NCBI GenBank assembly: GCA_035552775.1
Contig: DASZKW010000043.1
Span: 1-64,000 of the forward strand
DNA: 64,000 nucleotides
Reading direction: 5' to 3'
Source of the DNA: Acidimicrobiales bacterium
Lineage (GTDB): Bacteria > Actinomycetota > Acidimicrobiia > Acidimicrobiales > Palsa-688
The notes beneath the pieces are model-generated. The model was not told where the DNA came from, searched no databases, and saw nothing but the letters and a program-made list of their open reading frames with translations. Made by a program: the position numbers and the translations under genes. Below are positions 40,735 to 44,501 of this stretch, one piece after another (the first letter of the stretch is position 1; the number at the start of each line of letters is the position of its first letter).

Positions 40735-42060
40735 ATGACAGAACCTGAGGAGTTGCGGGAGCGGGCCGCCTCCATATTTCAGCAGCTGCGAAATCAGCCC
40801 CATGTCGCTGACGACTACGAGCCCAGCACCGGAGAGGACGTCGCGTCCAGCACCGGAGAGGACGTCGCGTCCAGCGCTCTACCCGGCACCGCAGAAGACG
40901 GGGCCGAAGACACGGGCACGGACTCGGACCCCGCCGATCACGTCGACCTCACCCGCCCTTCTGCTCCCGAGAACGGCGATCCCGGCCTAAGCAACCCCGT
41001 TGTTACCGACTCCGCCGTCGCCCAGCCGTCGTCGGTCCTCCTAGGAATGACGACGGTGCCGGACCTTCCTGAAGCCCGGGTCACGAGCGATCCCGACGCG
41101 GGCGCAAAGGGTGGCACCGTACCGGCCGAGGTGACTCCCACCGTCCCACGCCGATCGGTGCAGGCTTCAGCTCTGGGCGAGGGTGGTGTCGGTTTTGCCC
41201 TCAGCGGGGCTGAGCTCTCTGCCCTCTCCCCGGAGCGTGAGCGCGAGTCGGGAACACGCCGGCATCCCGGGAGCGACCGACCCCTGCCCCGGGTCTTGGC
41301 CATCGCCAACCAGAAGGGTGGCGTGGGCAAGACCACCACGGCTGTGAACCTCGGAGCGACCCTGGCCGAGCTCGGCTACCGGGTCCTGGTCGTCGACCTT
41401 GATCCCCAAGGCAACGCCACCACCGGCCTCGGGGTGAACCCCCGCAACCTCGACGCCTCGGTGTACGACGTCATCCTCCACGAGACCCCGATCGAGGACT
41501 GCATCGAGCCGTCGAGCCTGCGGAACCTGTTCATCGTTCCCGCCACCATCGACCTGGCCGGTGCCGAGATCGAACTCGTTCCCGCTTTCAGCCGGGAACT
41601 ACGCCTCCGCAGGGCGATTGACAGTGTCAAGGACGACTTCGAGTTCATCCTCATCGACTGTCCCCCGTCCCTCGGTCTGCTCACCGTGAACGGCTTGGCC
41701 GCGGCCAGCGAGGTTGTCGTGCCCATCCAGTGCGAGTATTACGCCCTCGAAGGCCTGGGCCAGCTCCTACGCAACGTGAACCTGGTCAAGTCCAACCTCA
41801 ACCCCAACCTCGAGGTGACCACCATCATCCTCACCATGTTCGATGCCCGTACCAGGCTGGCCGAGCAGGTAGTGGACGAGGTGCGCTCTCATTTCGGTGA
41901 CCGAGTCTGTCGTCATATAGTCCCTCGCACGGTGCGATTGAGCGAGGCCCCCTCGTTCGGACAACCCATCATCGTCTTCGACTCCTCCTCACGGGGAGCG
42001 ATCGCTTATCGGGAGTTGGCCAAGGAGGTAAGTGGTGGCGCGCCGCAGCGGATTGGGTAA
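40735..42060 (+). CDS. parA: chromosome partitioning ATPase ParA with about 190-aa acidic N-terminal extension
   Basis: Deviant Walker A KGGVGKTT. Extension contains a 24-bp tandem duplication (STGEDVAS x2). Confidence 0.8.
   Translation: MTEPEELRERAASIFQQLRNQPHVADDYEPSTGEDVASSTGEDVASSALPGTAEDGAEDTGTDSDPADHVDLTRPSAPENGDPGLSNPVVTDSAVAQPSSVLLGMTTVPDLPEARVTSDPDAGAKGGTVPAEVTPTVPRRSVQASALGEGGVGFALSGAELSALSPERERESGTRRHPGSDRPLPRVLAIANQKGGVGKTTTAVNLGATLAELGYRVLVVDLDPQGNATTGLGVNPRNLDASVYDVILHETPIEDCIEPSSLRNLFIVPATIDLAGAEIELVPAFSRELRLRRAIDSVKDDFEFILIDCPPSLGLLTVNGLAAASEVVVPIQCEYYALEGLGQLLRNVNLVKSNLNPNLEVTTIILTMFDARTRLAEQVVDEVRSHFGDRVCRHIVPRTVRLSEAPSFGQPIIVFDSSSRGAIAYRELAKEVSGGAPQRIG
40824..40871. repeat. 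24-bp perfect tandem duplication in the parA N-terminal extension
   Basis: cagcaccggagaggacgtcgcgtc x2. Confidence 0.85.
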
Positions 42061-42994: not shown

Positions 42995-43038
42995 AAGTAT
43001 TCGGACGACTACGGGGTGGGACGCCTACGGGGGGACGC

Positions 43039-43920
43039 CTACTCGGGGAAGGGCCGCTCCACCCAGCGATCGAGGGCGGACAGGAGAGCATCGGCGATCT
43101 CAGCGGCGCGCATGACGGCGACCGACGCCGGACCGATCTCCACCAGGACCGCTGGCATCCGGGTTTCCCGCAGGATGGTGATGCGCATGCCCCGGCAACC
43201 GGTACCGGGGATACGGAGCCGTGCCGGTAGATCCTCGTGGACAAGACCGGCGAGGTGGCGCCCGGCTTCCGAACAGAAGCCGTTGTGGCCCAAGAAGTAA
43301 GCGGTGCGACATCCGTCCAGGTCCGGGTCGAGCCGCACCCCGAGGTATACGTCGACCTTGGCGGCGTTGGCCTGCGCCGCCTGGGCGGATTCGTCGAGGT
43401 CGTGCAGGCTCAGCACCTCGGCTCCTCCCCGGCGCAACGCCCGGCGGATGGCGTCGGCCAGCGCCGCCAGTCCTCCGGTCTCGCCGACCGCGATGCGCCA
43501 GCCCCGCAGGGTGCGGGGAGCGTCGCTCAGGCGTACCCGCTCCCGGATGCCCGCCACGAGCACCGTCCCGGTTATCTTCGCCGTGTAGCTACGCAACAGC
43601 TGCACGGTTCCCGGACCGCAGATCCCGTCTTCGGTCAGGCCCAGGTTGCGCTGGAACTCACAGACCGCGGCGTGCGTTTGGGGCCCGAAGATCCCGTCCA
43701 CCCGGCCGGCGTCGAAACCGAGGGCGCCCAGCTGGCGCTGCAGGGAGGCCACGTCGTCGCCCCGCAGCATCCCTCGCCGGTAGTACAAGAGCCGCTCGCC
43801 CAAGGTCCGCCCGGCCTCCACCAACGCGTTCCAGGTCTGATGGCCGCAGACGGCATCCACCCTCAGCCCGTGGCTGGCCTGGAACACACGGACAGCGGCG
43901 ACGGTGCCCGGACCGAACAA
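43039..43920 (-). CDS. CwlM-like protein: two peptidoglycan-binding domains plus degenerate amidase_3-like domain; 5' end unresolved
   Basis: PG_binding_1 repeats (GPGTVAAVRVFQASHGLRVDAVCGHQTWNAL; DGIFGPQTHAAVCEFQRNLGLTEDGICGPGTVQLL). The annotated TTG start truncates the first domain (see findings). Confidence 0.6.
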   Translation of the reverse strand: MFGPGTVAAVRVFQASHGLRVDAVCGHQTWNALVEAGRTLGERLLYYRRGMLRGDDVASLQRQLGALGFDAGRVDGIFGPQTHAAVCEFQRNLGLTEDGICGPGTVQLLRSYTAKITGTVLVAGIRERVRLSDAPRTLRGWRIAVGETGGLAALADAIRRALRRGGAEVLSLHDLDESAQAAQANAAKVDVYLGVRLDPDLDGCRTAYFLGHNGFCSEAGRHLAGLVHEDLPARLRIPGTGCRGMRITILRETRMPAVLVEIGPASVAVMRAAEIADALLSALDRWVERPFPE

Positions 43921-44174
43921 GCCCTCTGGGTCGGGCGCGGTGCTGATGCCGAGGGCCTGCAGACGCTGCTGCAGATCCGTGGCCGCCGCTCCGATGGTCC
44001 CTTCGACCAGAGGGAGCCCGCCCTCACCCCTCGCCGCAGTGCCCCCTACGGGAGTGCTGTGCGCCGGGTGGTACCGGTCCCCGGAAACAGGGCCGCCTAC
44101 AGGAAAAGAGCCCGCTGCCGGAGCAGAGGCCTCTGCCCCTACAGGAGCGGGGCCCTCTACCGGAACGGAGCCCT

Positions 44175-44501
44175 CTACAGGAATTGATTTAGCTCCTCGA
44201 GTAGCTGACCCTTGCCCTTGGCACCGACGAGACGGAGCCGCGGCTCACCGTCCTTGAACAGGATGAGGGTAGGGATGCTCATCACGTCGAAGCGTCGAGC
44301 CAACTCGAGGTTGTCGTCCACGTTGATCTTGGCGATGCGCAACCTTCCCTCCGTGTCGGATGCGATCTCGTCGAGCACGGGAGCGATCATCTTGCATGGC
44401 CCGCACCACTCGGCCCAGAAGTCGACGAGGACAGCTCCCTCAGCCCCTTTGATCTCCTCATCGAACGTTTGATCCGTGAGCGTCAATGCGCCTTCAGCCA
44501 C
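44175..44501 (-). CDS. trxC: thioredoxin
   Basis: WCGPC active site. GTG start giving about 108 aa. Confidence 0.85.
   Translation of the reverse strand: MAEGALTLTDQTFDEEIKGAEGAVLVDFWAEWCGPCKMIAPVLDEIASDTEGRLRIAKINVDDNLELARRFDVMSIPTLILFKDGEPRLRLVGAKGKGQLLEELNQFL

Follow-up and report, generated by a model that had tools for sequence, protein, structure and literature searches.

Where does translation begin in a gene whose reading frame offers no start codon? The question is raised by a cwlM-like gene on the minus strand of contig DASZKW010000043.1, from an Acidimicrobiales bacterium of the Palsa-688 lineage. The stretch of this contig that was analysed, positions 1 to 64,000, is referred to here as the window. 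The gene lies directly downstream of trxC, and gene callers begin it at a TTG codon that cuts into its first peptidoglycan (PG)-binding domain. We find that the start-less cwlM layout is a real, conserved biological feature. For the mechanism, the reading that we favour, and to which we give about an even chance, is AUU initiation at 44184-44182, coupled to translation of trxC and yielding a product of 381 amino acids.

The cwlM frame is open far upstream of its annotated start

The features needed to follow the argument are these:

43039-43920, minus strand: cwlM-like open reading frame (ORF) as called, TTG start, 293 amino acids, equal to protein P0001 as called by the Joint Genome Institute (JGI)
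43918-43920, minus strand: TTG of the gene callers, probably an internal Leu codon, judging from Pfam, the lack of a Shine-Dalgarno (SD) sequence at useful spacing, and a difference in the relative L090
43822-43986, minus strand: PG_binding_1 domain 1, Pfam profile positions 4-57
43999-44016, minus strand: LPLVEG, the onset of amino-acid conservation, with synonymous changes across relatives
44175-44501, minus strand: trxC (thioredoxin), probably from GTG 44501-44499 to TAG 44177-44175, 108 amino acids, Pfam Thioredoxin E=3.8e-31
44245-44247, minus strand: TGA, the first in-frame stop 5′ of cwlM, which bounds any start or frameshift site

A preliminary description of this DNA had stated that the cwlM frame continues 5′ of the TTG at 43920 to an in-frame stop at about 44245, that no ATG, GTG or TTG occurs on the way, and that the frame crosses a repeat region and the 3′ end of trxC. 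All of this is borne out. The stop is the TGA at 44247-44245, none of the 108 in-frame codons from 44244 to 43921 is ATG, GTG or TTG, and the open frame passes through tandem repeats and overlaps the final 23 codons of trxC. Upstream of the TTG it encodes ...GGLPLVEGTIGAAATDLQQRLQALGISTAPDPEG, and the full reading up to the TTG is ...KSIPVEGSVPVEGPAPVGAEASAPAAGSFPVGGPVSGDRYHPAHSTPVGGTAARGEGGLPLVEGTIGAAATDLQQRLQALGISTAPDPEG. Start-type codons make up some 5-6% of codons in GC-rich coding DNA, so that 108 codons without any are unusual; what decides the matter, however, is homology and not chance.

The same description held that the upstream stretch encodes the missing half of PG-binding domain 1, and the Pfam match does indeed extend from profile positions 26-57 to positions 4-57 (of 57) when this stretch is included, covering 43822-43986. 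Translation from the TTG would thus remove 25 of the 57 profile positions. The TTG has no SD sequence at useful spacing, and it is not conserved, as L090 has Thr at this point in the frame. We conclude that the annotated start at 43920 is a gene-caller artefact.

The start-less layout recurs in relatives and is locked to the trxC frame

The DNA of relatives at 73-92% identity was compared with the window (L001, L002/L003, L004, L085, L086, L087, L090, L094 and L097), and a metagenome scan for close relatives gave seven loci, two of which were of use. The best homologues of the cwlM-like protein all come from Acidimicrobiales metagenome-assembled genomes. Their called N-termini spread across 60 alignment columns, the callers choosing differing internal GTG or TTG codons, and in no orthologue is a start corresponding to 43920, with half a domain, a genuine feature. 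Every one of the close relatives is open in frame from the end of trxC into domain 1. Measured against seven relatives, the ratio of non-synonymous to synonymous differences (pN/pS) is 0.13-0.47 in the 32 codons between LPL and the TTG (44016-43921) and 0.10-0.25 in the 88 codons of cwlM that follow. The low ratio indicates that the 32-codon stretch 5′ of the TTG is translated and constrained.

These data bear on the three options that the preliminary description had offered for the missing start. N-terminal decay is rejected, as the 32 codons 5′ of the TTG are under purifying selection, and a frameshift or sequencing error is rejected because the same start-less layout is found in 34 loci from many assemblies. 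With error and decay set aside, we infer that non-canonical initiation is the supported alternative.

An out-of-frame codon and an aberrant relative were considered separately:

44025-44027, minus strand: GTG, out of frame, rejected as a start, with no indel relative to L090

The combination of this GTG with a hidden indel was ruled out, the codon alignment with L090 being colinear between the GTG and domain 1. In L001, on the long-read contig contig_102314, there is a 1-nucleotide (nt) frameshift in PG-binding domain 1 (L001 2950-3000). This is probably an assembly error, and it accounts for the truncated call of protein P0006.

To place these loci on a common scale, the distance d from the trxC stop to an anchor in domain 1 (TW..LVEAG) was recorded for about 90 loci, together with the frame relation of the two genes. 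We see no canonical in-frame start ahead of domain 1 in 34 of these loci, which come from many assemblies. In all 34, cwlM lies in frame +2 (that is, -1) of trxC and is open past the trxC stop. Their d values take 11 distinct lengths (185, 188, 194, 197, 203, 206, 212, 215, 239, 263 and 341 nt), all of which differ by multiples of 3, and the sole exception to the frame lock is L001, frameshifted inside the domain. Within the window's own clade, spacers of 6, 9, 12, 20, 23 and 54 codons are all in frame. The phase of the spacer is kept in 34/34 loci, which would not be expected of a non-coding leader. The openness of the frame is by itself uninformative, since in these GC-rich spacers every one of the six frames is largely open, and it is the phase of spacer length that informs. 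The statement that 'class B' spacers are all 1 mod 3 is partly tautological, as the class is set by frame, and has meaning only through the monophyly of the clade on the protein tree.

The peptide right after the trxC stop is itself conserved, with synonymous differences: L085 has VEPGDELPL (gta gaa ccc ggc gac gag ctg ccg ctg) and L047 has VEPGDGLPL (gta gaa ccg ggc gac ggg ctc ccc ctc). In two loci, L035 and L063, a canonical GTG falls exactly on the trxC stop (TAGTG). A second, monophyletic clade has a GTG, TTG or ATG start exactly 6 codons ahead of the LPL column, and in loci with d=197, the commonest start-less class, it is the codon overlapping the trxC stop that sits 6 codons before LPL. 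Taken together, the TAGTG loci and the d=197 alignment map the N-terminus of the family to the region of the trxC stop.

An ATT codon within trxC is the favoured start

Three further features define the proposed gene:

43039-44184, minus strand: cwlM-like coding sequence (CDS), proposed full form, 381 amino acids, ATT to TAG 43041-43039, proposed from the open frame, homologues, frame lock and ATT covariation
44182-44184, minus strand: ATT, favoured start, formed from the trxC codons caA TTc and overlapping trxC by 10 nt, with covariation of its A
44193-44197, minus strand: AGGAG, SD-like, in Glu-Glu codons of trxC, 8 nt 5′ of the ATT

A trxC gene that ends in ..xxN TTC CTG TAG reads NTT CCT GTA G in the cwlM frame. 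The base N is A, giving ATT, in 18 of the 21 loci with Phe as the penultimate trxC residue, and in 1/56 of the non-Phe contexts. Five trxC codons supply this A (caA, ccA, gcA, gaA and tcA), and A is rare at third positions in thioredoxin genes (0-13%). Two of the three Phe-loci without the A (L035 and L063) own a canonical start, and L095 and L096, which own a GTG downstream, read caG TTC; all four of these own-start Phe-lineages have G or C at the N position. The ATT lineages form one deep clade on the protein tree, through which the A is kept across five amino-acid contexts, its losses being confined to lineages in which a canonical start arose. As judged from the aligned loci, conservation of this A goes further than overlapping constraints would account for, and its presence covaries with the lack of a canonical start, in counts uncorrected for kinship.

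In the window, the ATT at 44184-44182 is the sole classical near-cognate codon (ATT, ATC, ATA or CTG) 5′ of LPL. The frame of L004 has a stop 10 codons 5′ of its ATT, and the ATT and the GTA over the trxC stop are the sole start-like codons before the domain. AUU is a weak bacterial start, working at 0.1-3% of the AUG level in E. coli (bioRxiv 10.1101/063800).

We propose that the cwlM-like ORF would start where trxC ends, in the -1 frame relative to that gene, at an AUU that lies 7 nt before the trxC stop and would be served by the AGGAG at 44197-44193 within trxC. For ribosomes that translate trxC or terminate on it, the rate of starting cwlM would be low and fixed, in a form of attenuated translational coupling. 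The product would have a variable N-terminal tail rich in Pro, Val, Gly and Ala, followed by two PG-binding domains and a degenerate amidase domain. We infer that AUU is the codon actually used and that initiation of cwlM is coupled to trxC, and the purpose would be low expression relative to thioredoxin. In short, the mechanism with most support combines two known phenomena, a weak non-canonical start and translational coupling, in a new instance.

The spacer is a fast-evolving repeat

The region between the ATT and LPL is occupied by one feature:

44017-44181, minus strand: spacer of degenerate 18-nt tandem repeats, CCTGTAGAGGGCnnnnnn, in frame and stop-free, which would encode PVEGSV PVEGPA PVGAEA ...

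Tandem Repeats Finder detects a period of 18 at 44135-44183 and one of 42 at 44096-44176, a repeat search of the spacer gives 5 in-register copies, and the repeat unit opens with the trxC stop context, CCTGTAGAGGGC. The d value of the window is 341 nt, compared to 197 nt in the nearest short-spacer relatives, and the additional 144 nt equal eight 18-nt units. A different expansion of the same spacer is seen in L090 (92% identical), where d=248. The divergence and repeat expansion of the spacer mark it as a fast-evolving segment resembling a variable-number tandem repeat. Its motif CCTGTAGRGG is neither dispersed in the window nor enriched beyond the spacer, with 12 matches in 64 kb against 7.8 expected, 5/12 of them within the spacer. 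We found no Rfam match at E<=1 for an RNA element in the spacer, its fold is no more stable than those of shuffled sequences (z = -0.96), no promoter-like site was found in it, and it contains one weak terminator-like hairpin alone. The codon-phase GC signal is weak in start-less spacers, flat in those of the canonical-start clade, and atypical in the window repeat.

The case for translation of the spacer in this genome comes from the clade-wide argument and the absence of any other start. Translation that began at the ATT would extend the protein by an unconstrained tail, about 55 residues long, in which Pro, Val, Gly and Ala are abundant. Tryptic peptides predicted from the proposed CDS are YHPAHSTPVGGTAAR, from the spacer, and GEGGLPLVEGTIGAAATDLQQR.

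The spacer of L090 contains two in-frame ATG codons (L090 1130-1200), one of which lies exactly 6 codons before LPL (ATGA). At the position of this ATG, the window has GCG (44034-44032).

A number of observations weigh against initiation at the ATT. The AGGAG forms part of the codons for the conserved thioredoxin peptide QEL/EEL and occurs in every clade, including those that do not use it, so it is permissive and not independent evidence. The Tyr/His sister clades have GTA, CTA or CCA at the ATT column, with a wobble base that looks neutral, and they lack a start and keep the frame lock to the same degree, their 8 spacer lengths all being in phase; a broader mechanism may operate, independent of ATT. 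The closest relative, L090, has its in-frame ATG 6 codons ahead of LPL, and a start close to the domain is possible in the lineage of the window and L090. Within the spacer, pN/pS is about 1 in comparison with L090, mostly from non-synonymous differences 5′ of LPL, which indicates no protein-level constraint. Its third-position GC is atypically low (0.64), with many codons ending in T or A, and an 18-nt unit keeps frame automatically. The locus counts and statistics ignore phylogeny.

Possible re-initiation at the trxC stop

The best surviving alternative, unlikely on present evidence, is termination-reinitiation at the trxC stop with little dependence on the start codon. The -1 frame would be resumed at or near one codon, with the ATT as a helper in one clade:

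44176-44178, minus strand: GTA over the trxC stop (GTAG), alternative re-initiation codon; this column reads GTA, ATA or CTG in most start-less loci

Such re-initiation would accommodate the frame-locked clades that lack ATT. Most start-less loci, and about half of those in the own-start clade, have GTA, ATA or CTG as the codon over the stop, and it is the sole recurrent candidate in the Tyr/His clades. At d=197 it sits 6 codons before LPL, the position at which the other clade has its GTG.

Two loci show unusual codons at the end of trxC. That of L081 reads ..gca tac cta TAA, with two rare A-ending codons that give ATA CCT ATA, and so ATA at both candidate columns. L086 also has cta TAG, giving ATT CCT ATA.

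Re-initiation is also favoured by the way in which GTGA is avoided at the trxC stop. A G precedes the stop in 48/69 loci with TAG or TAA and in 0/15 with TGA (Fisher p=3.8e-7, uncorrected for phylogeny), and G-TGA is ordinary elsewhere in the window. As for canonical overlap motifs, neither GTGA nor ATGA is found at the trxC stop of any locus, TAGTG occurs in L035 and L063 only, and the window has GTAG. The avoidance of GTGA suggests selection for a weak, not a strong, start at the junction, and re-initiation of a more general kind is possible.

A further point comes from the clade with canonical starts (L012-L080; for example L015). Here the GTG, TTG or ATG of cwlM is always followed by A (xTGA), codon 2 is always a Ser codon of the AGY type, and there is no clear SD sequence at the start. 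Between the trxC stop and the TGA overlapping the start, the -1 frame of trxC is uninterrupted in 31/31 loci, and spacer phase is kept in 30/33 members over at least 15 lengths. The exceptions are L027 and L038, with a -1-frame TGA 7 nt after the start, and L083, in which the -1 frame is in frame with cwlM. These features fit a relay ORF, and the spacer of this clade may be a relay upstream ORF.

Set against re-initiation, the codons GUA and CUA are not known as efficient bacterial starts, the conserved A of ATT is left unexplained, and the spacers of the canonical-start clade have no codon-phase GC signal and do have hairpins. The counts on which the argument draws again ignore phylogeny. In E. 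coli, codons that are not near-cognate initiate at 0.01-0.1% of the AUG level (bioRxiv 10.1101/063800).

The hairpins of the canonical-start clade are GC-rich and lie directly 3′ of trxC (L052, L058, L061, L064 and L076; L015/L019/L023, L037/L048 and L013). They show compensatory changes, an example being GCCGCCCC-GGAA-GGGGCGGC, and could be terminators without a U-tract or stability elements.

We tentatively suggest a scheme for the Acidimicrobiales as a whole, which is possible although short of probable. Ribosomes leaving trxC would resume in the -1 frame at its stop without a canonical start, by near-cognate or start-codon-independent re-initiation. The resumed frame would be cwlM itself in some clades, and in another a relay ORF of 9-44 codons ending in the TGA over the cwlM start (xTGA) and passing the ribosome on. 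A strong GTGA overlap would be selected against, and the whole would act as a reduction gear that keeps a cell-wall regulator at a low level tied to thioredoxin-system output.

Improbable alternatives: initiation beside the domain, frameshifting and error

A near-cognate start beside domain 1, at CTG 44010-44008 or ATC 43995-43993, would make the repeat spacer an untranslated leader. Protein-level constraint that begins only at LPL and the atypical codon usage of the spacer would both fit such a start. So would the ATG of L090, and the GTG codons found in relatives at the Val of LPLVEG (L085, L086 and L097) or within LPV (L010, L017 and L055). However, the CTG and ATC are situated within the conserved LPL motif or beyond it and have no good SD sequence, and an untranslated spacer would not hold its phase with the trxC stop in 34/34 loci. 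There is no near-cognate codon at a fixed column (GTC in the window, ATC in L090 and L001, GGT in L002 and CGT in L004), and the covariation of the ATT is left unexplained. Overall, we regard a domain-proximal start as distinctly improbable.

Programmed -1 ribosomal frameshifting near the end of trxC, giving a TrxC-CwlM fusion protein, is very unlikely. It would account for cwlM always lying in the -1 frame of trxC, open past the stop, and the last sense codon of trxC follows the AGGAG at 12 nt, a distance at which such a sequence can stimulate -1 shifts, as in dnaX. However, the trxC frame contains no X_XXY_YYZ heptamer between 44244 and 44175, tRNA-Leu would be unable to re-pair on CCU, and in L004 the -1 frame is closed by a stop 12 codons ahead of that of trxC. 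No significant downstream structure or Rfam match was seen, as described for the spacer, and a thioredoxin domain is present in 0/120 homologues among the matches listed.

Least probable of all is a real start at TTG 43920 with a half-domain, or an indel error masking a normal start: the TTG is the choice of the gene callers and the long-read assembly of L001 does carry a frameshift within the domain, but the half-domain 5′ of the TTG is under purifying selection, the TTG is unconserved and lacks an SD sequence, the layout recurs in dozens of separate assemblies, and the codons align one by one with those of L090, so that an indel near GTG 44027 has no place.

The protein and its locus

The remainder of the protein comprises two features:

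43594-43764, minus strand: PG_binding_1 domain 2, from Pfam, residues 161-217 of a query starting at 44244
43132-43467, minus strand: Amidase_3, degenerate, scoring 28.1 bits (cut-off 27) over profile positions 27-144 of 174

PF01471 (PG_binding_1) matches two stretches of the cwlM-like protein with E=1e-35, and the match to PF01520 (Amidase_3) is marginal at that score. Sequence searches of NCBIfam and the PDB with the cwlM-like protein returned generic matches to PG-binding domains alone. The mechanically derived ORF of trxC begins at TTG 44555 and has 126 amino acids. The GTG at 44501 gives 108 amino acids, as called in relatives, and is preceded by AGGAGG at 44516-44511 with 9-nt spacing. 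The order of genes is a Ser/Thr kinase, a small membrane protein, trxB, trxC and cwlM, followed by convergent parB and parA. The genes called in relatives likewise show trxB-trxC-cwlM next to parB/parA. Judged by its domains and synteny, the cwlM-like protein is a predicted orthologue of CwlM.

Two observations concern the convergent neighbours. A second short tandem repeat, GGACGCCTACGGGG, with a unit of about 14-16 nt in about 3 copies (43003-43049), lies directly 3′ of the cwlM stop, in the convergent gap before parB. The parA homologue (40735-42060) has a low-complexity N-terminal extension of about 190 residues ahead of its ATPase domain, and its start is uncertain too, relatives being called at 315 to 502 amino acids.

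Comparison with known systems

CwlM of Mycobacterium tuberculosis (Rv3915) has the same domain order, two PG_binding_1 domains and then Amidase_3, and its trxB2-trxC-cwlM locus has the same synteny, with trxB, trxC, cwlM, convergent parB and parA, and an upstream Ser/Thr kinase; a cwlM locus of this layout has been described in that species (PMC7527780). There, cwlM has its own transcription start and promoter, ribosome-binding site and ATG. Its 5′ end is under post-transcriptional control, apo-aconitase binding an iron-responsive element in codons 14-22, and is linked to redox and iron stress, and the protein is phosphorylated by PknB and activates MurA (PMC7527780). Unlike M. tuberculosis cwlM, the ORF of the window overlaps trxC and has no canonical start, and its protein has a marginal amidase domain, no long C-terminal tail, and an N-terminal tail encoded by repeats.

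The E. coli genes infC and pcnB have an AUU start codon. The cwlM-like gene resembles them in its in-frame AUU, an SD sequence at normal spacing, and a codon conserved in orthologues, and its weak start would likewise set low expression. It differs in that the AUU and SD sequence are embedded in the upstream gene's coding sequence, 7 nt ahead of where that gene stops. As the AUU lies within trxC, the codon would be kept through selection at synonymous sites of trxC. Autoregulation by initiation factor 3 is not implied for cwlM.

There is also a likeness to ATGA, GTGA or TGATG coupling, in which co-directional genes have a start at most 10 nt from the upstream stop and in the -1 frame (PMC6728339, PMC12548453). 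Unlike in ATGA/GTGA coupling, the overlap motif here is GTAG, GTAA or CTGA, and the coupling would be deliberately weak. The spacer in turn recalls the interspersed repetitive units of mycobacteria (MIRUs), tandem repeats between the genes of operons with a repeat ORF in phase with the upstream stop, through which translation can pass (PMC12548453). The 18-nt unit and the 144-nt insertion of the window spacer are both frame-preserving, in MIRU-like fashion. A MIRU unit measures 46-101 bp compared to 18 nt here, and the window repeat is not dispersed within the window. Unlike a MIRU, it continues in frame into the downstream protein and does not terminate in a -4 overlap.

Significance

Across an order of Actinomycetota, gene callers truncate an essential-type cell-wall regulator at an arbitrary internal GTG or TTG. 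The called lengths of the cwlM family range from 253 to 375 amino acids, and as a result of these arbitrary start calls domain 1 is systematically mis-annotated. The sister clades that have no near-cognate codon and are still frame-locked offer a natural test of the importance of start-codon identity in bacterial re-initiation at a stop, and the behaviour of the ATT-less clades and the avoidance of GTGA give the system some further potential. In M. tuberculosis a link between redox or iron stress and the translation of cwlM is known, with another mechanism. For the Acidimicrobiales, the arrangement suggests that synthesis of CwlM is tied to the translation of thioredoxin through a deliberately weak start.

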